A stretch of 64,000 bases of DNA from positions 1-64,000 of the IMG/VR virus record IMGVR_UViG_3300036761_003779; one strand, given 5' to 3'. The DNA comes from a virus. The translations under genes and the position numbers were made by a program. The notes under the pieces are model-generated. The model searched no databases. It had not been told where the DNA came from and saw nothing but the letters and a program-made list of their open reading frames with translations. Shown in pieces: positions 9,788-29,175 of the stretch (its first letter is position 1; the number at the start of each line of letters is the position of its first letter).

Positions 9788-10625
9788 GCTCCCTCCTGTC
9801 CCGGAGTAGCCGCGATGCGGCCGCCCGGACCTGCGCCGGGTCCCGGTCCACGTACACGCACCGGCGCCCCGCCCGGTCCGCCGCCACGAGCGTGGTCCCG
9901 GTCCCCCCGAAGACGTCGAGGACCAGGCCGCCCTCCGGGCAGCCGGCCCGGACCAGCGCCTCAACGAGGTCCAGGGGCTTCTGCGCGCGGTTCAGGTCCA
10001 CGCCGTCCCCCCGCTTCAGCCGCTCCGACTGGTTGACGACCCCGCGCTCGACCCAGTTCGGGCAAACCGCCGGGACCCACTCCCCGCCCGGGTGGGCCAC
10101 GAAGTAGTTGCGCTGCCGCGGCATCGCGTCGAGGTCGAAGAAGGCGCCCGGCGCCTGCCCCACGGCTAGGAACTCGCAGGCGGAGACGAAGGTCCGCTTC
10201 CGGACGGAGCAGGCCGGATTCGGCTTGCACCAGACGAAGGAGGCCCGGACGTCGAAGGCCGCCTCCCGGAGCCACCGCTTGATCAGGGAGAGCCACCAGT
10301 CCGAGGTCCAGATCCAGGCGTTCCCCGCCGGGAGGTCCCGCGCCGCCCCGACCAGGGAGCGGAGGAGCGCCTCCAGCTCCGGCTCCGGGAGCCGGTCCCA
10401 GGACTCGTTCAGGGCATGGTCCTTGTGCCCGGTCATGTTCCCGATGACCGCGTCGGACGAGACCGCGTAGGGCAGATCCGTGAGGAGGAGCGCCGGCGGC
10501 CCCTCCACGCGGGCGAGGACCTCCCGGAGGAAGTCCGCGTCCGCCGCGTCCCCGCAGGCCACCACGTGCCCCCGCGCGTCCTCCCAGATAAAGCCGGGGA
10601 CGATCTCGACCGCGAGCCGCTTCAC
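9780..10625 (-). CDS. N6-adenine/N4-cytosine DNA methyltransferase (beta class)
   Basis: Catalytic TDLPY precedes QKP..L...VLDVFGGTGTT (SAM-binding). Confidence 0.88.
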   Translation of the reverse strand: MKRLAVEIVPGFIWEDARGHVVACGDAADADFLREVLARVEGPPALLLTDLPYAVSSDAVIGNMTGHKDHALNESWDRLPEPELEALLRSLVGAARDLPAGNAWIWTSDWWLSLIKRWLREAAFDVRASFVWCKPNPACSVRKRTFVSACEFLAVGQAPGAFFDLDAMPRQRNYFVAHPGGEWVPAVCPNWVERGVVNQSERLKRGDGVDLNRAQKPLDLVEALVRAGCPEGGLVLDVFGGTGTTLVAADRAGRRCVYVDRDPAQVRAAASRLLRDRRERG

Positions 10626-11080
10626 CCTCCGACCTCAGGCCATGGACCCGTCCACTGATTCCTCCCAAACCGTTCCGGACACGTCTTCGAGCCATGCCGC
10701 TCCCCCCGCGCCGTTCGTTCCGGTCTGGTCCGCCTTCCGTGACTCTCCCCACGCGCCCGCCTATCCGGTGAAACGGAGTCCCTACCCCGCGCGGTCCGCC
10801 CCTTCGCGTCCCGGTCCGCGACGTTGTCCGCGTTGGTCCCGAGGAAGAGGTGGTCCGGGTTCACGCAGGATGGGTTGTCGCAGCGGTGGAGGATGCATAG
10901 ATCCTCCGGGATCGCCCCGTTGAGTAAAGAGAAGGCCACGCGGTGCGCGCAGTGCCGCCTCCCGGCAACTGTGAAGAGCCCGTAGCCGGAGCGCGTCTTT
11001 ACCCCAAGCCACTCCCAGCACCCGTCCGCCTTCCTCACCTTTGACCAAAATCTCTTCTCTATTGGGACATTCCTACTCAT
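10622..11080 (-). CDS. HNH homing endonuclease (free-standing)
   Basis: RFWSKV..CWEW..GYG..HRVAF..LHRCDNPSCVNPDHL. Confidence 0.9.
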   Translation of the reverse strand: MSRNVPIEKRFWSKVRKADGCWEWLGVKTRSGYGLFTVAGRRHCAHRVAFSLLNGAIPEDLCILHRCDNPSCVNPDHLFLGTNADNVADRDAKGRTARGRDSVSPDRRARGESHGRRTRPERTARGERHGSKTCPERFGRNQWTGPWPEVGG

Positions 11081-13280
11081 TCCAAGCTCCGCTTCTATCC
11101 TCCGCCTCCCAGCGGTGGACCACGACCACGTTCCGGAACTCCCTCCGGACGTCTGCATGAGTTATTAATGATACTTGCCGGATCCCCAGGTCCTCCAGCC
11201 CGCCGAGGAGGAGGGCGTGGAGCGCGGCCCGGTTCGGCTCGTCCAGCGCGCCGTCCGGCTCGTCGACTAGGAGGGACTCGCAGCGGACCCGCCGCCGACT
11301 CCCGGGGAGCGCCGCCAGCCCAAGGCGGACGCCCAGGCTCAGGAGGACCTTCCCGCCGCCGGAGTCCAGCTCCCAGGCGGACTCGTGCTCGCCGTCCAGG
11401 ACCTCGAGCCGCAGCTCGTCCCGCCGCTTCCGCCGCCGCGGCGCCCCGCACAGCCGGCAGAGGTGGGTCCGCTCCGCCTTCTCGAACGGCGTCCCGCAGC
11501 CCACGCAGGCCGGCTCCCAGTCCTTCAGCTCCCGGGTCGGCGCGAACCGGACCCGGAGCGGCGTCCGGAGGACCTCGAGGACCCGGTTCATGTTGGCCTC
11601 CGCCGACCCAAAGGCGTTCTCCAGCTCCCGGCTCGGGATCCCCGCCGCGCCGAAGGCGTAGGCGGCCCAGGCGGTGAGCTCAAGCTCGCGCCGCGCCGCG
11701 CCCCGCCGCCCCTCCAGGTCCGCCCGCTCCGCCGCCGCGCGCTCCAGCCCGGCCGCCTCCGCCCGCGCGTCCGCCGCGACCCGCTCCGCCTCCCGGAGCG
11801 CCTCCCGCGCCTCCCGGAGGGCGTCCGCCGCCCCCGCCAGCGTCCGGGACTCCGGGACCGCCGGGAGGGTCTCGAGCCGCTTCCGCGCCGCGTGGAGCGC
11901 CCGGCCCACCTCCGTCCGCCCCAGCCGACCCCGCTCCACCTCCCCCGCGGCCGCCTCCGCCGCCCGCTTCCGGGCGGTCAGGTCCGCCATCGCCTGCGCC
12001 GGCGTCGCCGCGCCCCGGAGCGCCCGCAGCTCCCGGACCTCCTCCTCCGCGGAGGCCACGTCCGAGCGCGCCATGCCCAGGCGCCAGTCCACCTCGTCGA
12101 TCTCCGTCTCCAGCGCCATCATCCGGCGCCGGTGCCCGAGCCCGTCCACCTTCATCCCGGCCAGGACCGCCTCGTCCCGCGCCACCCGGTCACAGGGCTC
12201 CCGGAGGACGGGGCAGACCCCGGTTCGGCTCTCCACCAGGGCGTTGTACTTTTCCAGTAAGGCTAGACGAGCATGCCCCTCCTCCCGCAGCGCGTCCTCC
12301 GCCCGGTGGAGCGCGGCAAGCGCCTCCTCCGCCGTCCCCCGCATCTCCCCGAGCGCGGCCTCCCGCTCCTCGAGCCGCCGCGCCCGCTCCGCCCGGTCCG
12401 CCGCCGCGCGGTAGGCGGTCTCCGCCTCCGGGACCGCCGCCTCCGCCGCCGCCGCCGCGTCCTCCGCGTCCCGTCGCTCCTGCGCCAGGGCGTTCTCCAG
12501 CCGCCGGACCTCCGCCCCCGCGGCGTCCCGCTCCCGCCGCTTCCCCTCCCGCGCCTCGTCCGCGGCCCTGGCCACCACATGGCGCTGGAGCGCCTCCTCC
12601 GCTTCCAGGCGCGCCGCGTCAAGGGCCAGGTCCGCTCCCCTTGCCCGCTCCCGCATCTCCTCCCCCCGGGCCAGCAGGGCGCCCAGGCGCACCTCCTCCG
12701 CGTCCAGCGCCCGGAGCGTCGCCTGGGCCCGGAGCATCCGCCGCCGCGCCAGGTCGGCCCGGGGCACCCAGCGGTCCGTCCCGAACCAGGGCGCCACCAC
12801 GCGCCGCTTCTCCCCGGCGGTCAGGCGCATGAAGGCGTGGACGTCCCCCTGCGCCGCCGCCATCGTCAGGGCGTACTCCTCCCGGGAGAGCCCCACGACC
12901 TCGTCCCGGACCGCCGCCTCGAGGTCCGCGTCCGAGACGTGGGCGCCGTCGATGGTCCGGATCGGGTCCCCGCCCGCCGTCCGCCCGCGCCGGAGGACCC
13001 AGGAGCGCCCGTCCGAGGACTCGACCTGCGCCTCCGCCCAGGCGTCCTCCTTCCCCCGCGCCAGCCGGTGGGGGAGGTCCTCGACGCGCCCGCCGCGGGT
13101 GGCTCCGAAGAAGACGTACATGGGCACGTCCACCGCCAGCCACGATTTTCCAGCCCGGTTGGAACGGTCGCCCGCGCCCTCGTACTCCCCGACGAAGACC
13201 GTGACGCCCGGGCCCAGCCGGACCTCCCACTCCGCGAGGAATGGTCCCAGGTTGTTGACGGTCAGCCGCGTGAGGATCAC
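11073..13280 (-). CDS. SbcC/Rad50-like SMC ATPase
   Basis: SNRAGKS Walker A, QG Q-loop, long coiled coil, SGGGK signature, LLVDEPDGALD Walker B, ITH. Confidence 0.9.
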   Translation of the reverse strand: MILTRLTVNNLGPFLAEWEVRLGPGVTVFVGEYEGAGDRSNRAGKSWLAVDVPMYVFFGATRGGRVEDLPHRLARGKEDAWAEAQVESSDGRSWVLRRGRTAGGDPIRTIDGAHVSDADLEAAVRDEVVGLSREEYALTMAAAQGDVHAFMRLTAGEKRRVVAPWFGTDRWVPRADLARRRMLRAQATLRALDAEEVRLGALLARGEEMRERARGADLALDAARLEAEEALQRHVVARAADEAREGKRRERDAAGAEVRRLENALAQERRDAEDAAAAAEAAVPEAETAYRAAADRAERARRLEEREAALGEMRGTAEEALAALHRAEDALREEGHARLALLEKYNALVESRTGVCPVLREPCDRVARDEAVLAGMKVDGLGHRRRMMALETEIDEVDWRLGMARSDVASAEEEVRELRALRGAATPAQAMADLTARKRAAEAAAGEVERGRLGRTEVGRALHAARKRLETLPAVPESRTLAGAADALREAREALREAERVAADARAEAAGLERAAAERADLEGRRGAARRELELTAWAAYAFGAAGIPSRELENAFGSAEANMNRVLEVLRTPLRVRFAPTRELKDWEPACVGCGTPFEKAERTHLCRLCGAPRRRKRRDELRLEVLDGEHESAWELDSGGGKVLLSLGVRLGLAALPGSRRRVRCESLLVDEPDGALDEPNRAALHALLLGGLEDLGIRQVSLITHADVRREFRNVVVVHRWEAEDRSGAWNE

Positions 13281-18466: not shown

Positions 18467-21337
18467 TCATCTGGCAGTAGACCGGATGCGTGGGCTCCGG
18501 CGCAGCTCCTCGATGTCCTCCGGCCGGAGGAGGGCGCGCGCGTTCTCCCGGATCTGGGCCACCGCCTTGGCGACCCGCTTCGGGTCGAGGAGCCATCGCT
18601 GGTACCGCTCGACCAGCTCCCCCCGCCGGCGCCGCTTCTCGACGAACCACGCCTGCCAGTCCCGCTCCGGGAAGCAGACCTCCAGGATCCGGAGGCTGGC
18701 CGGATAGATCACGCGGTCCCAGTAGTATTCCGCCGCGTACCGGATGCCGCCGGCCGCCTCCTCGAAGTCCTCCCGGGTGACCCCCTGGAGGGTCGGCTTC
18801 GTCCCGGTCACCACGTACTCGATCTTCATCCCCACGTAGTATTCCCGCCCGTGCTCCCGGATCTCGTCCGCCAGCTTCACGTGGAGGGTCTTCGTCTTGT
18901 AGCGTTCCGGGTCCTTCGAGATCCCCTTCGAGATGCAGACCTCGTCCGCGCTCAGCCGCCCCTCCGCGCAGCGGGTGAACTCCGGGGCAACGATGTCCCG
19001 CTCGATCTCATCCCCGCTCAGCCGGTCCATGAGGATGGCGTCGAGGACCCGCTGCTGGAGCCGGCGCGTCATCCCGGAGAAGTCCGACCGCATGACCTCG
19101 AGCCCCTTCACCTCCACGTGGTCCGTGATCGCGCCCTTGTGCGCCAGCATGCGGCCCGCGTACCTCTTCTTGCAGACGAAGAAGATCCGGTCGAAGACGT
19201 CCTCGAACTCCAGCTCGACCATGTTCCACTTCAGGTTGCAGCCGCACCCCTCCAGGATCCGGAAGTAGCGGTCCTGGCAGTAGGCGGCGAACCGCTTGCC
19301 GATGGCGTCCAGCTCCGCGGCCCGCGCCTCCTCCGTCTCCCACTCCCGGTCGGAGGGCGCAAGCTGGATGTAGATGGAGTCCGTGTCCCCGTAAAGCGGC
19401 GAAAAGCCGTTCTCCTTGGCGTACTCCGCCGTCTTGAGGATGAAGGACCGCCCGGAGAGGGTGATGGACTCCGCCAGCTCCGTGTCGTAGTAGCGGCTCC
19501 GCGGGTTCCCCATGTCCCCGTAGAAGCTCAGGCCCAGCCGCTTGAAGGAATAGGCCAGGCGGTAGTACAGGAGGTACATGTCGTCCTGGGTGGTCCCGGT
19601 CACCTTCAGCCGCTCGTGCTGGAGGTCCGTGTACTTCTTCCGCCGCTCCAGCGTCTTGACGAACATCTGGGAGATGTACCCCTCCCGGTCGAGCCGGAAG
19701 GTCGAGCCGCCCTTCGTCTCCCCGGAGTCCACCACGACCTCCGGGCAGCGGCACAGCTCCCCGGGCGCGTAGCTCCCCCGCTCCTCCTCCTTGACGATGG
19801 TCTCCGGGCTGATGTTGAAGGCCCGGACCATCGACGGGTACAGGCTCTTGAAGTCGAAGGCCGCCACGTTCCGGTGCATCCCGACGACGGGTGGGAAGAC
19901 GTAGGCGCCCTCGTAGGGCTCCGGGCGGCCCGGGCTCCAGTACCGGGTGATGAAGTGGTGCCCCTCCTTGAAGCCCTTCTTCAGGAGGAGCTGGTCGATC
20001 TTGGTCGAGATGTTCCAGTCGTTCGGGAAGCCGTTGGCCACGCGGCAGAAGATCTGCTCGATGGCCACGAAGCCCGTGAACGCCTCCAGCTTCCGGAGGA
20101 TCTTGGCGTCGTAGCGGTTGTACTCCTCGAGCAGCTCCGGGTCGTGCCGGTAGAGGTTGATGAACTTCGGGACCACCCCCGGGTGGCGCTCCCGAAAGGG
20201 CTTGCGCCAGTCGATCTTCCGCATCTTGAGGACCTTGTCCCCAATGGAGCCCAGCCCGAAGGACACCGCGTCCGCGCCGGCCCGGATGTAGTGGCGCTTG
20301 AAGACCGGGAGCGGGTCCGCGAAGAGGTGCTTCCGCCAGTCGATCTGGATCCGGTGTTTCCGCATCCGGTAGATGATGACCGGGAAGTCGAACCCAAAGC
20401 CGTTCCAGGCGGCGATGACGTCGTACTTCTCCACGCAGAGCCGCTTCCACTCGAGGAGCATCTCCCGCTCCGCCTCGTCCGTCTCCGCCCGGAGGCGGAG
20501 GAAGCCGCAGTCCTCCGGGTCCTGCTCGAAGTGGTCCCCCTCCCAGGCGATGGACAGGATCCGGTTCTGCTCCTTCCGGTCGAAGCCGCCCACGGAGTCG
20601 TCCGTCTCGATGTCGAAGAAGCCCATGCGGTAGTGCGCCTGGACGTGGAGGTCGTAGTCCGTCAGGAACCGCTGCTTGGGGGTGAGGTCCGCCTCCAGCG
20701 GCTCGAGCCCCTTCCGGCGGCACCACTCGACGGTCTCATGAATAGGCGTCCACCGCTCCCGGTCCTGCGGGAAGCGGACGGCGTGCGGCCGCTCCCCCAG
20801 GACGTAGGGCGCCATCCACATCGCCCCGGCCTCCGGGTCCCCCACCCGGCGGAAGCAGGCGTCGTGGTCGATCTTGGGGTACTTGTAGGGCACGTACACG
20901 CGGACGAAGCGGTCCGGGAAGTCCGGGTCCGGGACCACCCGCTTGGCGTGGTTCCGGCAGAGCCAGGCCCACTTCTCCGCCGGCACGCGCTCGTAGTCCG
21001 CCCGGCTCAGGAAGAAGTACCACTCGAACGGGTGGACCTCCTTGACCCGCTTCCCCGTCGCCGGGTCCCGGGACATGAGGACGATGTCCTCCCCCTCCGA
21101 CCAGCCGTGGTAATACTCCCGGTCGTTGAAGAAGCGGGCGTCCTTCATCTCGTCGAAGTCCGCGGCGTCCCGGAGGTCCACCACGTCCCGCTTGTCGTGG
21201 ACCTGCTCCGCGTCGATCTGTTGGGCGTAGAAGGCCCGCTGCGCGACCTTCTTCTTCCCGTCGAAGTCGCCGACCAGCCCCTGGCTGTCCGCGTCGCTCA
21301 GGAGCGAAGCGCCCGCCCGGAAAGCGCCGCCCGCCAC
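18467..21337 (-). CDS. Family B DNA polymerase
   Basis: Exonuclease FFDIET, AWNGFGFDFP, YNRYD; polymerase FDFKSLYPS, K..GLSFYG, YGDTDS, KKRY, KGLE; start position approximate. Confidence 0.95.
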   Translation of the reverse strand: MAGGAFRAGASLLSDADSQGLVGDFDGKKKVAQRAFYAQQIDAEQVHDKRDVVDLRDAADFDEMKDARFFNDREYYHGWSEGEDIVLMSRDPATGKRVKEVHPFEWYFFLSRADYERVPAEKWAWLCRNHAKRVVPDPDFPDRFVRVYVPYKYPKIDHDACFRRVGDPEAGAMWMAPYVLGERPHAVRFPQDRERWTPIHETVEWCRRKGLEPLEADLTPKQRFLTDYDLHVQAHYRMGFFDIETDDSVGGFDRKEQNRILSIAWEGDHFEQDPEDCGFLRLRAETDEAEREMLLEWKRLCVEKYDVIAAWNGFGFDFPVIIYRMRKHRIQIDWRKHLFADPLPVFKRHYIRAGADAVSFGLGSIGDKVLKMRKIDWRKPFRERHPGVVPKFINLYRHDPELLEEYNRYDAKILRKLEAFTGFVAIEQIFCRVANGFPNDWNISTKIDQLLLKKGFKEGHHFITRYWSPGRPEPYEGAYVFPPVVGMHRNVAAFDFKSLYPSMVRAFNISPETIVKEEERGSYAPGELCRCPEVVVDSGETKGGSTFRLDREGYISQMFVKTLERRKKYTDLQHERLKVTGTTQDDMYLLYYRLAYSFKRLGLSFYGDMGNPRSRYYDTELAESITLSGRSFILKTAEYAKENGFSPLYGDTDSIYIQLAPSDREWETEEARAAELDAIGKRFAAYCQDRYFRILEGCGCNLKWNMVELEFEDVFDRIFFVCKKRYAGRMLAHKGAITDHVEVKGLEVMRSDFSGMTRRLQQRVLDAILMDRLSGDEIERDIVAPEFTRCAEGRLSADEVCISKGISKDPERYKTKTLHVKLADEIREHGREYYVGMKIEYVVTGTKPTLQGVTREDFEEAAGGIRYAAEYYWDRVIYPASLRILEVCFPERDWQAWFVEKRRRRGELVERYQRWLLDPKRVAKAVAQIRENARALLRPEDIEELRRSPRIRSTAR

Positions 21338-21888
21338 CGCGCCGCCTCCGCCTCCCGCGCCGTCCACCGCCGGAGAGTCGCCACCGGGTGCCGGAGGAGG
21401 ACCGCCTCCGCCAGCGTCCCGTCCACCCTCCTCTTCGCCCCGAAGCTGCTTAACCCGAGGTGGGCGCCAGCCGCCCGTCCGAGGACCAGGATGATCCTCA
21501 GGCTCGTCAAGGAGGTCATCTCCAAGGTCAGGTGGGTCCTCGCGCATGCGTCAACCTCCGCCGGAGTCGGGCCCCGGTTCCCTGGAGTAGCGCATTTGAG
21601 CGCATTCGTGGAGTAGACCGCGGAGAGGTCCAGGCCGGAGAGCCGCGCCAGCTCCCAGAAGGCCCGCTCCGCGCCCTGAAGTTTTGGTGGAACTTTCCCA
21701 TACCGCTGGAACACCGCCAGGTATGGGATGACAAAGGCGCCCTTCACGCCGTCCGCCGCCCGGACCGCCGGGTTGATCCCGACCACCGCGACCTCCGCGT
21801 CCCCCGGCCCGAACCCCACGCATCGCGGGAGGCCGGAGGAACCCAGCGGGCACGCCCGGCAGTCCGCGGTCTCCCGCCGGAGGATCAC
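21298..21888 (-). CDS. Uracil-DNA glycosylase superfamily protein (family 4-like, Fe-S Cys)
   Basis: CRACPL, VVGINP, YSTNALKC..NRGP..E...C, LVLGR, LRHP. Confidence 0.85.
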   Translation of the reverse strand: MILRRETADCRACPLGSSGLPRCVGFGPGDAEVAVVGINPAVRAADGVKGAFVIPYLAVFQRYGKVPPKLQGAERAFWELARLSGLDLSAVYSTNALKCATPGNRGPTPAEVDACARTHLTLEMTSLTSLRIILVLGRAAGAHLGLSSFGAKRRVDGTLAEAVLLRHPVATLRRWTAREAEAARWRAALSGRALRS

Positions 21889-22418
21889 GGCTCCTCGAGG
21901 TGCAGGCTCCCGATGAGGAGGGTCAGGCGGGTCTCCCGGTAGGTGACCGCCTCTGACATCCCCACGACGCTCCACGCCACCCAGAGGTGGTTCAGGACGT
22001 CCAGCGGGAGGAGCGGGACCGCCCGCTCGCTCCGCATGAACCCCAGGACGTGGAGGGCGTCCTTGCGGCCGCGGAGGACCTGGATCGCGGACGGGCACTT
22101 CGGGGGCGGGAGGACGGAGACCATCCGCCGGGAGGTCCGCTCCTCCCCCGGGAAGCGCAGGCGGAGGGCGCGCGAGTGCGCCCGGTAGTCCTCCGCCTCC
22201 GCGTCCCAGTGCTCGAGGAGCGCCGGGTCCATCTTCCTCACCAGCCCCCGCGCCGCGTCCTCCCCGTCCAGGAGCCGCTCCGTCGAGAGCCGGAGGACCG
22301 CGCCGGCCGCCTCCCGCCAGTTCCGCCCGTCGACGCGGACCAGCGCCCCCGTCTGCCGGACCTCCTCGACCGCGCGCTCGACCGCGCGCTCGATCTGCTC
22401 CGCCAGCTCCGCGCTCAT
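21885..22418 (-). CDS. Short thymidylate-synthase-fold protein, dCMP-modifying type
   Basis: SRR..PPKCPSAIQVL..FMRS..D..IGSLHL aligns by eye to T4 dCMP hydroxymethylase motifs. Confidence 0.7.
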   Translation of the reverse strand: MSAELAEQIERAVERAVEEVRQTGALVRVDGRNWREAAGAVLRLSTERLLDGEDAARGLVRKMDPALLEHWDAEAEDYRAHSRALRLRFPGEERTSRRMVSVLPPPKCPSAIQVLRGRKDALHVLGFMRSERAVPLLPLDVLNHLWVAWSVVGMSEAVTYRETRLTLLIGSLHLEEP

Positions 22419-23428
22419 CTCTGCCGCCCCTCCCAGCCGGGGAACGCCTCCGCCAGCTTGTCCGCAAAGCGCCACTCGTGGTTCGCCTCGACGCCCCCGC
22501 CCTCCCGGATGTCCATCCACTCGAACTTGAGCGCCGTTCGGAGGTCCGGCTCCGTCATCCTCCCGACGCCCAGGACCTCCTGGAGCCGGTCGAGGTCCTC
22601 CGGCGCGTGGACAAAGTCCCCCTTGTAGTCGAGGTCGGCGCGCCACTCCGGGTCGAGGTCCACGCCCGTCACCTCCTCCACCATCCGCACGATCTCCCCG
22701 TACTGGAGCCAGAGCCCGGAGGCCACCGGGATCTTCCCGGAGAGCCGCTTCTCCGCCGCGTGGGTGATGACCTCCGCGATGAACTCGTGCGGCGTCACCT
22801 CCTTCACCTTCAGCGGGTCGAGCGGGAGGAACGGCCGGCGGTCGTAGACCCCGGCCGCGCACTTGAGGAGGTCCGCCACGCAGGAGTTCCCGTCCCGCAT
22901 CCCGCCGAAGCCAAAGGACGGGTAGACCTGGAGGAGGTGGTCCTGGACCCCACGCTCCCGGAAGGTCGACTCCATCAGGAGGCGCCCGGCCAGCTTGGTC
23001 ATCCCGTAGCGGGTGAGCGGGTTCGCCGGCGTCCGGTTCACCTCGATGGGGCGGTCCAGCCCGTAGGCGGCCGGCTCCATCTCCGCGGCGGTGGCAAGTA
23101 GGACCGTGTAGACCCCGCGCCGGGAGAGGACGTCCGCCAGCGCCTGGACCGCGGACACGTTGCAGCTCCAGGCGTCCTCCGCGTGCGCCTCGCAGCGGGT
23201 CGTCCCCACGAGCGCGCCGGAGTGGAAGAAGGCGTCCGGCCGCTCCGCGTCGAGCCAGGCCAGGTAGACCGGGCTCCGGAAGTCCGGCTCCTCCGCCCCG
23301 GTGGACGGGCTGACCCAGCGCGGGACCTCCTGCGCCGGCGGGGAGACCCGGACGTGCCCCGCCGTCTTCAGGTACTCGTCCAGGACGGACGCCAGCATCC
23401 CGCTGTCACCAGTGAGTGCGTACCTCAT
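22415..23428 (-). CDS. NAD(P)-dependent NDP-sugar epimerase/reductase (extended SDR, RmlD-like)
   Basis: LTGDSGMLA, HSGA, NV, YGMTK catalytic motif. Confidence 0.85.
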   Translation of the reverse strand: MRYALTGDSGMLASVLDEYLKTAGHVRVSPPAQEVPRWVSPSTGAEEPDFRSPVYLAWLDAERPDAFFHSGALVGTTRCEAHAEDAWSCNVSAVQALADVLSRRGVYTVLLATAAEMEPAAYGLDRPIEVNRTPANPLTRYGMTKLAGRLLMESTFRERGVQDHLLQVYPSFGFGGMRDGNSCVADLLKCAAGVYDRRPFLPLDPLKVKEVTPHEFIAEVITHAAEKRLSGKIPVASGLWLQYGEIVRMVEEVTGVDLDPEWRADLDYKGDFVHAPEDLDRLQEVLGVGRMTEPDLRTALKFEWMDIREGGGVEANHEWRFADKLAEAFPGWEGRQR

Positions 23429-23924
23429 GTATGACCTCCTCCTCGCTTCGGTTCGTGTCGATGACGTGGACCTCCCCGCCCAGGTCCCGGTACAGCCGCG
23501 CCGCCTCCCGGAAGGCGTCCAGCTGCTCCCGGAGCCGCCGCGGGGGGCGTCCGCCGCGCCGCGTCGCGCGCGCCTCGAGGACCTCCGCCGGCGCCTCGAG
23601 GACAAAGACCCGGGCGTCCCCCGCCGCCCGGGCCACCTCCCGGACAAAGTCCCAGGGGACCGGGCGGCCGCGGAGCCCGTCGTACACCACGTTCGAGAGG
23701 ACCCAGCGGTCCACGATCGCGCGGAGGAACGGGGCGAGGGCGGCCACCGTCAGCGCGTGTTGCGCGCCGTGGACCTGGAGGTCCCGAGACGTCAGCGGGT
23801 GGAGCCAGGTCAGCTCCCCGTGCCGGCCCGGATCATCGAAGACCGGGAGGTCGTAGAGCGAGGCCAGCGACTTAGCCAGCGTGGACTTGCCCACGCAATT
23901 GGCGCCCTCGAGGACGCGGATCAC
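23406..23924 (-). CDS. dNMP (thymidylate-kinase-like) kinase
   Basis: LEGANCVGKST P-loop, IVDRW..S..VY. Confidence 0.85.
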   Translation of the reverse strand: MIRVLEGANCVGKSTLAKSLASLYDLPVFDDPGRHGELTWLHPLTSRDLQVHGAQHALTVAALAPFLRAIVDRWVLSNVVYDGLRGRPVPWDFVREVARAAGDARVFVLEAPAEVLEARATRRGGRPPRRLREQLDAFREAARLYRDLGGEVHVIDTNRSEEEVIHEVRTHW

Positions 23925-25087
23925 GGCCGCCTCGACGCGGACCAGTCCGCGGAGAGGTCCCGCGGCTCCCGCTCCTCCCCGGACGGTCCGGCGGAGAAGC
24001 CGCCCGTGGGGTCCGCGGCGTCCCCGGCCATCACGGTGAAGAGGTCCGCCTCCTCCGCGCTCCCCGGCTCGTAGCCGAAGAGGAAGCGATCCCGGGCGGA
24101 AAGCGGCCAGCCCTCCGGGCGGTCCTCCCCGGCGTCCGGGATCCGGACGCCCAGCTGCGCGGCGATGGTCGCCCGGTCCGAGCAGCTCTCGTTGAAGTCC
24201 GCCACGCTGTAGTCCAGGTCCGGCGCCCCCGGCGCGGAGCGGACCCGGTTCCGGCCGCAGCTCCGGAACAGGCACCCGAACGCCTCCGACATCGTGTGCG
24301 CCTTGTGATAGCCGCACGCCCCGGAGAAGTCGCAGCCCGGGCGGAGGTGCATCCCGAGGAGCGGGAAGGCGTCCCACTTCAGGAGCCGGTCCCGGAGGAG
24401 CCAGGCCACCGCCACGGTGTCCTCCGCCTCGGAGAAGGTCATCCGCCGGGCGCACATCCCCTTCAGCGCCATGAAGTTGATGCTCAGGGAGAAGCGGTGG
24501 ACCACGGAGATCGGGAGCGCCGTCCGCGCCTCCTGCCAGCTCCCCTTCCCCGCCTCCACGATCTCCCGGTAGACGTCCTTGGCGTGACGCGCCAGGGAGA
24601 CCAGGCCCGCGAGCTTCCGCTCGTCCCGGAAGGACGCCTCGTGGAAGCGGAACGGGATGTCCAGGTGGTTATTGTCCCGCGTCCCCATCGACGCGAAGAC
24701 CACGCCGAGCCGCGCCCGAGCGATCTGCTCGAAGGACCACCGGGAGAGGTTCTCCACGGAGAAGGTGAACTGGGGCGCCTCCATCGCCAGGGGGAGCGCC
24801 TGACCGCGGAGGACCGCGCGGACGACCGCCTCCCGCGCCTCCGGGGAGGCGTCCTCCCAGCGCTGCCGCATCGAGGTCCGCCAGGTCCCCCAGGTCGACG
24901 TGGCCATGCAGTACATGGCCCGGTAGGGGTTCCGCGAGGCGTCGAGGAGGTCCACGCGGATCCCCTCCACGCCCCGGTAGAAGCGGGTGTCGAACTCCGG
25001 GGAGGCGGAGGGCGCCGTCCCCATCAGCTCCCGGAGCTTCCGCAACTCCTCCACGCGCTCCGCGCCCGTCTTGACATCCGTGCTCAT
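23921..25087 (-). CDS. Divergent ThyX-like flavin-dependent enzyme
   Basis: E..QFTF.V..LSR...QIARAR, QEARTALP, N..AL...CARR; the canonical RHRx7S motif is altered. Confidence 0.75.
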   Translation of the reverse strand: MSTDVKTGAERVEELRKLRELMGTAPSASPEFDTRFYRGVEGIRVDLLDASRNPYRAMYCMATSTWGTWRTSMRQRWEDASPEAREAVVRAVLRGQALPLAMEAPQFTFSVENLSRWSFEQIARARLGVVFASMGTRDNNHLDIPFRFHEASFRDERKLAGLVSLARHAKDVYREIVEAGKGSWQEARTALPISVVHRFSLSINFMALKGMCARRMTFSEAEDTVAVAWLLRDRLLKWDAFPLLGMHLRPGCDFSGACGYHKAHTMSEAFGCLFRSCGRNRVRSAPGAPDLDYSVADFNESCSDRATIAAQLGVRIPDAGEDRPEGWPLSARDRFLFGYEPGSAEEADLFTVMAGDAADPTGGFSAGPSGEEREPRDLSADWSASRRP

Positions 25088-26064
25088 CTCGTCCTCCTCT
25101 CCCGGGCGATCCGGAGGACCGCCTCAAGCGCCCGCGCCGGGTCCGCCGCGCGGTGGGCCCCGGCGACCTCTCGCCCCGCGTTCAGCTCGTTCTCGACCAG
25201 GACCACGGGCACGCCCGCGGAGACCACCTCCGCCGCAATGACCGGGTCGTCCTCCAGCATCGCCAGGAGCCCGGGGAACCGCTCCACGATCCGCCGGTGC
25301 TTCTCCCGGTCGAAGAGGACCGCCTCGTGCCGGAGCCCGTTGGCGTCGAGCCACTCCAGGGTGTCCGCGTAGATCCGGCTGAAGCGCCAGTAAGGCCGCG
25401 CGGAGAGGAGGACCACGTTCAGCCCCTCCGCCCGGAGCCCGTCGAGGAGCGCCTTCGCGCCCGCCCGGACGCGCTGCTCCCGCTTCGCGCCGCTCTCCCG
25501 GTAGCGGTCCTTGAGCTCAAGGTAGCGCCGCGCCCCCAGCTCCCCCCGGAGCGCGGAGAGGAAGGGCACGTCCCCGCGCCGCTCGAAGGAGAACTCCGGA
25601 ACGGTCTGGCAGACCCACTCGCAGAACACGGCCGGGTAGTCCGAGAGGACCCCGTCGATGTCGACGGCCACGACCCGCTCCGACCCGGGCGGGATGGCCC
25701 GGAGGCGCTGCTCCATCCCGTAGCGGTACTCGACCACCTGGGTCTTCCGCTCGAACTCCTCCTCGATCTCCTCCGCGGAGAAGTCCCAGACGTTGGCCAG
25801 CCCGAGGAGGAACTTGAGGCAGTCGATCCACTCCTCCAGCACGTTCGTCCGGATCACCGGGTCCGGGCTCTGGCGGTGCATCTTCCAGGAGGTCTCCCCC
25901 AGCAGCTCGTGAAGCTCCCCCTCCACGTGGAGGACGAACTCCTTGGACCAGTGGATCCGGTCCGTCGGGGAGAGCGCCCGGACGTCCCCCAGGCCGCGGT
26001 CTGCGAAGAAGCGCCGGTTGAACTCCATCTGCCTCGCCAGGAGGTCCCTGAACGCCTCAGACAT
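25084..26064 (-). CDS. MazG/dimeric dUTPase-dCTPase domain fused to a HAD nucleotidase
   Basis: E..ELL..SWK.H..EEWID..KF; C-terminal VDIDGVL, SARP, EDD. Confidence 0.85.
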   Translation of the reverse strand: MSEAFRDLLARQMEFNRRFFADRGLGDVRALSPTDRIHWSKEFVLHVEGELHELLGETSWKMHRQSPDPVIRTNVLEEWIDCLKFLLGLANVWDFSAEEIEEEFERKTQVVEYRYGMEQRLRAIPPGSERVVAVDIDGVLSDYPAVFCEWVCQTVPEFSFERRGDVPFLSALRGELGARRYLELKDRYRESGAKREQRVRAGAKALLDGLRAEGLNVVLLSARPYWRFSRIYADTLEWLDANGLRHEAVLFDREKHRRIVERFPGLLAMLEDDPVIAAEVVSAGVPVVLVENELNAGREVAGAHRAADPARALEAVLRIARERRTR

Positions 26065-26959
26065 GGGACACCAGGTCCCGGAGCGCCTCCTCCGCCACGT
26101 CGTGGAGCCGGATCCGGTGGTCCCAGCGGGCCATCCTCCCCATGTGCCGGACCAGCCCGCCGGACTCCTCCGCCGGCCGCGGCTCCCCGAGGACCTGGAG
26201 GAGGGCGTCCCGGACGACCCAGGAGCCGTTCACCACCTCGGGGAACCAGGGCGGGGTGTCCCCGTTGAACTCGTAGGCGAAGGTCCCGCCGGGGAGGATC
26301 GTGACCCGGTCAAACGGGATGCGCGGGTCCGTCACGTAGACCCAGCGGAGGCCGGCGTCCCGCGCCACCCGGAGGGCGTCCGCCCAGGCCATCCCCTCCG
26401 CAAAGGACTTCCTCCCGATGCACCAGGTCCCCTCCCGCCGGAGGAGCCCGTCGAAGGCCGGCGCCGGGAGGGTGTTCACCAGCAGGCCGGTCTCGTACAG
26501 CTCGTCCCCCGCCTCGACGCGCACGCGCCCCGTGGCGGGCTCGGGTCGGACGAACGAGACCTTACCCAGCCAGACGCGCACGCGCGCCTCCAGGGCTGCG
26601 CAGAGGGCATCGACGGTGGTACGGAAGCACGTCAGGAGCCCGGGCGCCCCGGAGGAGACCGCGGAGGAGGGCGCCGCCGCCGGCCGCCCGCTCCGGCGGA
26701 GGTACTCCGCCCGCTCACCCGGCGTGACGTCCTGCGTCACCCCCCGGGGACCCCAGAAGCCGAACCGGACCTCCTCCGTGTCCGCCGGGAGGCCGAGGTC
26801 CCGGAGGACCGCGGCCATGCCCGGGGAGGACCAGAGGTGGCTCGGGGCCAGGCGCCGCGTCTCCGCGTCCCCGCCCGGCCGCTCCCCCAGGCAGGGCGCC
26901 CGGAGGAGGTGGGCGCAGAGGAGGCCGACCGGCCCCGCCCCAATCACGAGAGCGTCCAT
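26057..26959 (-). CDS. FAD-dependent oxidoreductase, UDP-galactopyranose-mutase/HemY-like
   Basis: VIGAGPVGL, LVNTLP, WVYV.DP.IPF.RVT, GRMARWDH. Confidence 0.7.
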   Translation of the reverse strand: MDALVIGAGPVGLLCAHLLRAPCLGERPGGDAETRRLAPSHLWSSPGMAAVLRDLGLPADTEEVRFGFWGPRGVTQDVTPGERAEYLRRSGRPAAAPSSAVSSGAPGLLTCFRTTVDALCAALEARVRVWLGKVSFVRPEPATGRVRVEAGDELYETGLLVNTLPAPAFDGLLRREGTWCIGRKSFAEGMAWADALRVARDAGLRWVYVTDPRIPFDRVTILPGGTFAYEFNGDTPPWFPEVVNGSWVVRDALLQVLGEPRPAEESGGLVRHMGRMARWDHRIRLHDVAEEALRDLVSHV

Positions 26960-28452: not shown

Positions 28453-29175
28453 TCAAACCGTTATCTTTTCGCTCGTCGCAAGCACGCTCCGGACCGACGA
28501 CCCGTACCAGGCCGCGCCCGCCTTCGGGGGGACCCCGCGGGCGTTCAGCATGTCCGCGATCTTGTGGGAGGAGATCCCGTCCGCCCGCGCCGCCCGCATC
28601 TCCTCGAGGACCGCCGCCTCCGCCGGGTCCGGGAGCAGCCGGTCCCCCTCCCGCCGGAAGCCGAAGGGCGTCCGCCCGAAGACCCGGCCGGTCGCCCGGC
28701 AGCGCGCCGTCGCGTCCCGGCAGCGGGCGGAGATCATCTCCCGCTCCATCTCCGCCATGGCGGCGAGGATGGTCATCGTGAACCGCCCGTGCGGCGTCGA
28801 CGTGTCCATCTGCTCCCGGACGGAGACGAAGCCGCGCCCGGCCCGGGCCAGGTCGGAGACCACGGTCAGGAAGTCGAGGGTGGAGCGGCTCAGCCGGTCG
28901 ATGGCGTAGACGATCAGGGCGTCCGCCTCCCCATCCAGGACCGCCTCGAGCGCCCGGCGGAGCGCCGGCCGCTCCAGGTTCTTCCCGGAGAGCCCGGCGT
29001 CCACCTCGACGCGGAGGAGGTCCGCGTCCGTCAGCGCCGCGTAGGCGCGGAGCTTCTCCTGCTGATCCCCGAGAGAGACCCCGCCGCGCGCCTGCTCCTC
29101 CGTCGACACCCGGGCGTAGCCGATCAGGCGGGTCCGCCCCTCCGGGCGGAGCATCTTCGTCCGTGGCCGCGCCAT
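28453..29175 (-). CDS. Serine recombinase (resolvase domain plus short recombinase domain)
   Basis: IGYARVSTEEQ, DAGLSG...RPAL, DRLSR, E.ER..IS.R, PFGF. Confidence 0.92.
   Translation of the reverse strand: MARPRTKMLRPEGRTRLIGYARVSTEEQARGGVSLGDQQEKLRAYAALTDADLLRVEVDAGLSGKNLERPALRRALEAVLDGEADALIVYAIDRLSRSTLDFLTVVSDLARAGRGFVSVREQMDTSTPHGRFTMTILAAMAEMEREMISARCRDATARCRATGRVFGRTPFGFRREGDRLLPDPAEAAVLEEMRAARADGISSHKIADMLNARGVPPKAGAAWYGSSVRSVLATSEKITV

Follow-up and report, generated by a model that had tools for sequence, protein, structure and literature searches.

A recurrent phage gene module with a minimal thymidylate synthase-fold protein, possibly serving pyrimidine modification before replication

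We analysed a block of six minus-strand genes (positions 21885-26959) in the IMG/VR virus record IMGVR_UViG_3300036761_003779. The window comprised the first 64 kb of this 105,878-bp record, which CheckV rates as 100% complete. In the direction of transcription, the genes encode a flavin adenine dinucleotide (FAD)-binding protein (F), a fusion of a MazG-type pyrophosphatase and a HAD phosphatase (E), a divergent ThyX-family protein (D), a deoxynucleoside monophosphate (dNMP) kinase (C), an extended short-chain dehydrogenase/reductase (SDR; B) and a minimal thymidylate synthase (TS)-fold protein (A). A first-pass annotation, made from the sequence alone, had described this gene set, directly upstream of a uracil-DNA glycosylase (UDG) and a family B DNA polymerase (PolB), and the arrangement was confirmed, with overlaps of 4-23 nt between successive genes. 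New here are the recurrence of the module across 63 distinct IMG/VR loci and a minimal TS-fold family that is not seen by Pfam. Gene identities, folds and conserved residues could be established directly, as could the occurrence of the module in many phages. We tentatively favour, with slightly less than even confidence, the reading that the six genes form a pre-replicative (pool-level) module of pyrimidine-nucleotide modification that feeds the phage PolB at least one non-canonical pyrimidine dNTP. Judging from the conserved residues, cytosine is a plausible target.

To trace the module, IMG/VR was scanned with an alignment of protein D, yielding 65 loci, of which 63 were distinct (two further cuts of the L001/L002 contig were set aside). 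Locus contents were assessed by local phmmer, BLAST clustering and profile searches, and gene frequencies refer to the 34 long loci of at least 19 kb. D and E (MazG/HAD) were found in all 34, F in 33, an A-like gene in 27 and an SDR gene in 22, and kinases were common. The first-pass annotation had suggested a neighbourhood search; here the module was found to recur, with A-like and SDR genes in only some of the long loci. F lies immediately upstream of E wherever both were seen. The adjoining polymerase is PolB in the relatives of the window and a UDG-fused DnaE in the others, and at least 47 loci place the module beside a polymerase with a separate or fused UDG. A GT4 glycosyltransferase gene was present within 10 kb in 9 of the 34 long loci; among those that also have an A-like gene, all but one are of the RSxN type described below.

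Protein A was compared with Escherichia coli ThyA and T4 gp42 by MAFFT alignment and a residue table. The alpha/beta fold of TS was recognised, as the earlier annotation had proposed, and the catalytic Cys, the phosphate-binding Arg and Ser and an Asp are retained. ThyA S125/R126/R127, C146, Q151, R166/S167 and H207 are all kept, with C108 of A corresponding to C146, R97/R98 to R126/R127, R129/S130 to R166/S167 and H173 to H207; for R21 no clear counterpart was recognised. The position of ThyA N177 is occupied by Asp (D140), as in T4 gp42, and Asp at this site is regarded as a dCMP selector (PMC13326640). Arg (R132) stands at the position of ThyA D169, giving the motif RSER where TS has RSxD. 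The folate-binding elements were not found in A: the ThyA segments at about 66-100 (with W80 and W83) and 212-264 are absent, the E58 position is variable and D169 is replaced by Arg. By this alignment, the nucleotide-binding and nucleophile site of A is complete and the folate site is absent, and a role as an active folate-dependent hydroxymethylase was rejected because these elements are missing. The comparison with T4 gp42 is similarly two-sided. A aligns with it at all nucleotide-binding and nucleophile positions, but has 177 rather than 246 amino acids, carries RSER instead of RSND and is missing three parts of gp42, namely the helix-B/E60 region, folate-binding segment and C-terminus.

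Sequence databases gave little direct access to this protein. A had no matches in Pfam (including PF00303), PHROG or NCBIfam, direct searches returned only ten close homologues, and tblastn against 50,697 phage records matched nothing. Pattern scans of IMG/VR found a single contig, and a metagenome scan yielded one 1.5-kb fragment. Searches of PDB sequences with single sequences or small profiles of A, F, D and E gave nothing useful; in the ESM Atlas, the feature search for A was uninformative (scores of 0.82 or lower), and the structure search returned TS families. A-like proteins were gathered by an iterated local profile search over the loci collected via protein D, which identified members of 150-200 amino acids at 38 loci. 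The resulting profile matched T4 gp42 (6e-21), a Mosigvirus gp48-like protein (5e-20) and ThyA (3e-14), and because all three were matched it had not drifted. The gene usually lies just after the SDR gene and before the polymerase or D, and some copies are fused to a kinase. Although the relatives share only about 20% identity, the catalytic Cys, Arg, Ser, Asp and His are invariant; among 22 diverse members these are R97, C108, R129, S130, D140 and H173. A large protein collection contained at least 61 A-like clusters (127-201 amino acids), none with a Pfam domain and all annotated as hypothetical, and Pfam was blind to 5 of 6 A-like proteins tested from related loci. Surveys find phage base modifications mainly through Pfam thymidylate-synthase matches, and the family is therefore invisible to them. 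One locus (L010) has two TS-fold genes, at L010:9321-9983 and L010:13004-14178; one is detected by Pfam (PF00303, 1.7e-11) and the other is of a minimal RSSD type, directly followed by a dCMP-deaminase-like open reading frame (ORF; HAE...PCxxC).

The D169 position divides the family. Across the 38 loci Asn is the commonest residue (19 loci), and Asp (8), His (5), Glu and Ser (2 each) and Gln (1) also occur; Arg was seen only in the clade of the window, in which two relatives carry Leu. The signature RS(Q/S)N plus Asp occurs in 19 of the 38, and the Asn-type proteins read RSQN...D...S.H.F, the same pattern as the Mosigvirus (RB69-genus) enzyme. TS homologues with D169N make 5-hydroxy-dCMP, and this residue has been proposed as diagnostic (Lee et al. 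2026, PMC13326640). Asn at D169 together with Asp at N177 was not found in A of the window, which has R132 and D140. With its RSER motif, the clade of the window matches neither the hydroxymethylase (RSxD) nor the hydroxylase (RSxN) type. Unlike the characterised 5-hydroxy-dCMP synthases (RB69 gp48, DLP3 gp80 and HY126 AfhB; PDB 9iqu/9iqc; PMC13326640), proteins of this clade have Arg or Leu at the D169N position and are a further 40-60 residues shorter, and the genes for arabinose-5-phosphate isomerase, kinase/pyrophosphorylase and arabinosyltransferase that accompany those enzymes have no counterparts here.

Protein D was confirmed as a strongly altered ThyX paralogue, as had been suggested. 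It scored 42.4 bits against Pfam Thy1 (gathering cut-off 24.8) but only 26 bits against the NCBIfam ThyX model TIGR02170 (cut-off 88). An exhaustive HMMER search yielded only 193 cluster representatives, and on sequence criteria the family constitutes a separate ThyX subfamily of about 320-350 amino acids. Among the PDB sequence searches, only a profile of 36 D-family members reached ThyX, aligning with the Mycobacterium tuberculosis and Thermotoga maritima (TM0449) enzymes at 6e-17. Like these enzymes, the profile keeps counterparts of T. maritima R74, R78, R80, R90, R147 and R174. Unlike them, it has Ala for H53 and H79 (RHR to RAR), Gly for S88 and Asp for Y91, and D carries a C-terminal extension of about 100 amino acids with four conserved Cys. 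The ThyX motif RHRxxSxxxxS and the His equivalent to T. maritima H53 were not found in D, which reads RAR...G.RD, and the H53-to-Ala change is family-wide. The genome (G000) encodes a second, canonical ThyX at 100545-101393 on the minus strand (Thy1 3e-49, RHR intact), beside a dCMP deaminase at 101544-102239 on the same strand; this pair weakens the view that D is merely the thymidylate synthase of the phage. Both ThyX types were present in 3 of 6 complete genomes examined. Longer D-family members (P0025, P0026, P0031, P0054, P0075 and P0098) contain inteins at several sites, some including LAGLIDADG or DUF559 endonuclease parts. Inteins tend to sit in important enzymes, and we therefore count them in favour of the module reading. 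A separate observation concerns marine loci (L033, L034, L037, L046, L056 and others), where, at about 9950-11500 and on many independent contigs, the D homologue is spread over two ORFs that overlap in different frames; a split gene, a programmed frameshift or an insertion could each account for this. GroES/GroEL genes and a UDG domain fused to DnaE are also found at these loci.

The first-pass annotation had called F a UDP-galactopyranose mutase (UGM)-like enzyme, and this holds only in part: F is an FAD protein with a fold as close to protoporphyrinogen oxidase as to UGM, and not a bona fide mutase. Its model combines an FAD Rossmann domain with a beta-sheet domain, as in UGM (Glf, including phage RL38J1 gp084), protoporphyrinogen oxidase and amine oxidases. 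UGM chains came top in VIA-align, tied with protoporphyrinogen oxidase, and amine oxidases and renalase headed the Foldseek list. Against Pfam, neither GLF nor any other family exceeded its threshold, with only a 17-residue Rossmann motif matched, and the helical UDP-binding domain was not found in the model. Identification as a true UGM was rejected on these two grounds, that is, the absence of a GLF-family match and of the three-domain architecture with a helical UDP-binding domain.

For E, C and B, the earlier assignments held. The all-alpha N-terminal half of E scored 32.2 bits against dUTPase_2 (cut-off 22.9) and matched PHROG 173 and 415, whereas the C-terminal half belongs to the HAD phosphatases and keeps motif I (DxDG) intact. 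C scored 41.8 bits against Thymidylate_kin (cut-off 27) and has the P-loop GANCVGKS, with a score below the TIGR00041 equivalog cut-off. B matched the Epimerase domain at 42.6 bits (cut-off 20.9) and has a YxxxK motif and a variant glycine-rich NAD motif, GDSGMLA. Its nearest solved relative is MoeE5, a UDP-GlcA 4-epimerase, with whose catalytic motif YGMTK aligns. A role of B and F in virion or surface glycans is unlikely, because both are strictly linked to nucleotide enzymes and the polymerase.

Parts of the module were also found in cultured phages. The HAD domain of E matched 83 cultured actinophage records; Streptomyces phage PHTowN encodes members of the F, E(HAD) and D families (gp55, gp54 and gp46, respectively) beside DnaE. 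Gordonia DV-type phages and Mycobacterium cluster D phages are further carriers of this core. Weaker counterparts occur in Pbunavirus F8, where genes for Thy1, HAD_PNKP and F-like FAD proteins lie next to DnaE; matches to our family profiles were weak (8e-9 and 2e-7), and ThyX of F8 resembles the canonical enzyme much more closely (108 bits). DNA of F8 and 14-1 contains a sugar-like modified thymidine of 362/390 Da (PMC12191111). The three families thus occur in the same order beside a replicative polymerase, as in our loci, but the MazG half of E was absent in the cases seen, and no A-like gene was present in the regions examined. SP-15 was considered as a further relative and dropped, as the D-family profile did not match its second Thy1 protein, gp130, and the 50 kb examined contained no F-like gene.

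Under the favoured reading of a pool-level module, the MazG-type half of E would cut dCTP and/or dUTP to the monophosphate. A would bind dCMP through the Asp at the N177 position, and its conserved Cys would attack C6 so that C5 becomes nucleophilic, as in TS-fold enzymes. With the folate site deleted, the electrophile should not be methylene-folate; it is more likely to be flavin-derived, as in the flavin/O2-dependent 5-hydroxy-dCMP synthases. D, with dUMP-binding arginines kept and the ThyX histidines and serine lost, may act at C5 of a uracil-type nucleotide in a second, altered reaction, or handle flavin. C would phosphorylate the modified dNMP, F (FAD) and B (NAD(P)) may contribute redox or side-chain tailoring steps, and the HAD half of E would take off a phosphate. 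The adjacent UDG may clear uracil that enters DNA from an enlarged dUMP/dUTP pool. Such a scheme resembles the T4 gp56/gp42/gp1 pathway in its NTP pyrophosphatase, TS-fold enzyme with Cys and Asp, dNMP kinase and phage polymerase, but differs in adding a ThyX paralogue, an FAD protein and an SDR, and in having no glucosyltransferase.

This parallel to T4 gene logic counts for modification, together with the conserved A-like active site, the presence of a redundant, canonical ThyX and the linkage to UDG and polymerase, a coupling known in phages with modified thymidine (PMC13697223). Several observations weigh in the opposite direction. Six-base palindromes are strongly avoided genome-wide, with a median observed-to-expected ratio (O/E) of 0.73 versus 1.00 for all 6-mers: observed and expected counts are 1 and 33 for ACGCGT, 1 and 25 for AGGCCT and 10 and 73 for GAGCTC, and AAGCTT has a single occurrence. 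Avoidance of this kind is typical of DNA that faces type II restriction, and it argues against fully restriction-proof DNA in which C or T is wholly replaced by a restriction-blocking base. (Among shorter words, 4-bp cores are not avoided; O/E was 0.43 for CTAG and 0.47 for the TA dinucleotide.) No Pfam GT1/GT2 glycosyltransferase was detected in the complete genome, and A of the window fits neither proven signature. The nearest relatives (L004/5, L007 and L025) keep F, E, D and C and have no A, which makes A an accessory to the conserved core and dispensable for it. Furthermore, a plain reading as dUTPase, ThyX and Tmk covers three of the six genes. Of the modified dCTP proposed by the first-pass annotation, a pyrimidine modification module is probable and a cytosine target plausible.

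The plain reading, extended to the whole block, is ordinary nucleotide supply: E would make dUMP from dUTP/dCTP, D would work as a thymidylate synthase despite its divergence, C would be a thymidylate kinase, F and B would provide reducing power or be unrelated, A would be a regulatory or vestigial dCMP-binding TS relic, and virion DNA would be canonical. We consider this rather unlikely. Pfam names the three genes dUTPase_2, Thy1 and Thymidylate_kin, palindrome avoidance suggests DNA that restriction enzymes can cut, and the lack of GT1/GT2 enzymes fits as well. The F-HAD-ThyX-like trio of the 83 actinophage records is annotated as oxidoreductase, phosphatase and ThyX-like thymidylate synthase, and D is the sole ThyX-family gene in two complete relatives. 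However, a canonical ThyX and a dCMP deaminase are already encoded elsewhere in the genome, the D family lacks counterparts of H53, H79, S88 and Y91 throughout its representatives, D itself scores far below the ThyX cut-off, and invariant catalytic residues at such low identity are unlike a relic. In addition, dTMP synthesis needs neither a strictly conserved flavoprotein partner nor an SDR. Less probable still is a module centred on thymidine, in which the flavoprotein, HAD and ThyX-like core would build a sugar-derived C5 side chain on a uracil nucleotide, with A as a secondary add-on; the product would resemble the thymidine derivatives of sugar-alcohol/pentose type in Pbunavirus F8 and 14-1. 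The long loci do conserve D, E and F most strongly, D keeps counterparts of the uracil-binding arginines R90 and R174, UDG lies beside the module and a dCMP deaminase is encoded, and F8, whose DNA has modified thymidine (PMC12191111), carries the comparable genes by DnaE. Yet the F8 profile matches are weak and its ThyX is nearer the canonical form; F8 modifies only T in TG, a specificity that action at pool level leaves unexplained; the D-family profile does not match SP-15 gp130; the Asp and Cys of A speak for cytosine chemistry; and palindrome avoidance counts against this proposal too.

The furanosyl-cytosine of the first-pass annotation, for which F would be an NDP-sugar pyranose-furanose mutase, B would tailor the NDP-sugar, and A or an unseen transferase would attach it, is highly improbable. 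F has neither a GLF match nor the UDP-binding domain, its UGM match is tied with protoporphyrinogen oxidase and its Foldseek list is led by other oxidases. No nucleotidyltransferase was seen in the cluster, and A of the window is RSER rather than RSxN. Nor does the complete genome, including the part outside the window, encode a GT1/GT2 glycosyltransferase. A more speculative variant of pool-level modification, which we regard as improbable, would use flavin-iminium chemistry to produce, ahead of replication, pyrimidine nucleotides bearing a carbon-linked, sugar-derived (polyol) group at C5. In this scheme F, having lost its UDP-binding domain, would bind an aldose or its phosphate covalently at flavin N5. 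The Cys of A would activate C5 of dCMP and D that of dUMP, and each activated carbon would attack the iminium instead of methylene; the HAD domain and SDR would then trim the side chain. If true, this would explain the loss of folate elements in A and of His elements in D, and would offer a biosynthetic route to pentose-derived thymidines like those in Pbunavirus DNA.

By modifying the bases of their DNA, phages overcome restriction and CRISPR defences, and the enzymes involved are a resource for biotechnology. The A-like family, with what is predicted to be a full dCMP-type active site in a module common to dozens of soil, freshwater and marine phages, looks functional. Its marine members have the 5-hydroxy-dCMP synthase signature, often beside a GT4 transferase, and this combination predicts glycosylated 5-hydroxycytosine far outside T4-like phages. 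The RSER type, the ThyX paralogue and the orphan flavoprotein together suggest reactions not yet described, and cultured actinophages with the flavoprotein/HAD/ThyX-like core make that core accessible to testing.

Table 1. Genes of the module and the adjoining replication genes. Positions refer to the 64-kb window.
Feature	Position	Strand	Remarks
F: 300-aa FAD-binding protein, N-terminal GxGxxG	26057..26959	-	UGM / protoporphyrinogen oxidase / amine oxidase-type fold without helical domain
E: 326-aa fusion, MazG/dimeric-dUTPase-type NTP pyrophosphatase + HAD phosphatase	25084..26064	-	domains, DIDGV motif I
D: 388-aa divergent ThyX-family protein	23921..25087	-	RHR to RAR, four-Cys C-terminal extension
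C: 176-aa P-loop dNMP kinase, thymidylate-kinase-like	23406..23936	-	GTG start at 23936 or 23924
B: 337-aa extended SDR, Epimerase/RmlD type	22415..23428	-	YGMTK (YxxxK)
A: 177-aa minimal thymidylate-synthase-fold protein	21885..22418	-	Cys108, R97/R98, R129/S130, Asp140, His173
Family-4-type uracil-DNA glycosylase	21298..21888	-	overlaps stop of A by 4 nt
Family B DNA polymerase	18467..21337	-	start uncertain; GTG 21337 likeliest

This uncultured phage has a G+C content of 70%, and the minus strand holds nearly all of its genes. It encodes a class II ribonucleotide reductase, RecA, helicases, an endolysin and myovirus baseplate and tail proteins, which identifies it as a tailed phage with its own replication and nucleotide machinery. 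Module genes were called from a frame plot of G+C at third codon positions (GC3) with inspection of start codons (Table 1). The UDG gene runs into PolB: in the longest PolB ORF (ATG 21547), the first 70-85 codons fall in the GC3 frame of the UDG gene, and a purine-rich stretch precedes the candidate start GTG 21337. This GTG was preferred because ATG 21547 sits in the UDG reading frame, and the ORF stretch upstream of it is probably not translated as PolB. The UDG has GINPA where family-4 enzymes usually show GEAPG, and this motif is reminiscent of SMUG/family-5 variants; whether the enzyme accepts uracil alone or 5-substituted uracils as well could matter if pyrimidines are modified. Elsewhere in the replication gene block of this otherwise lytic-looking phage, a serine-recombinase-like ORF was found at 28453-29175 of the window, flanked by a zinc-finger/sigma-like gene on one side and a UvrD-type helicase gene on the other.

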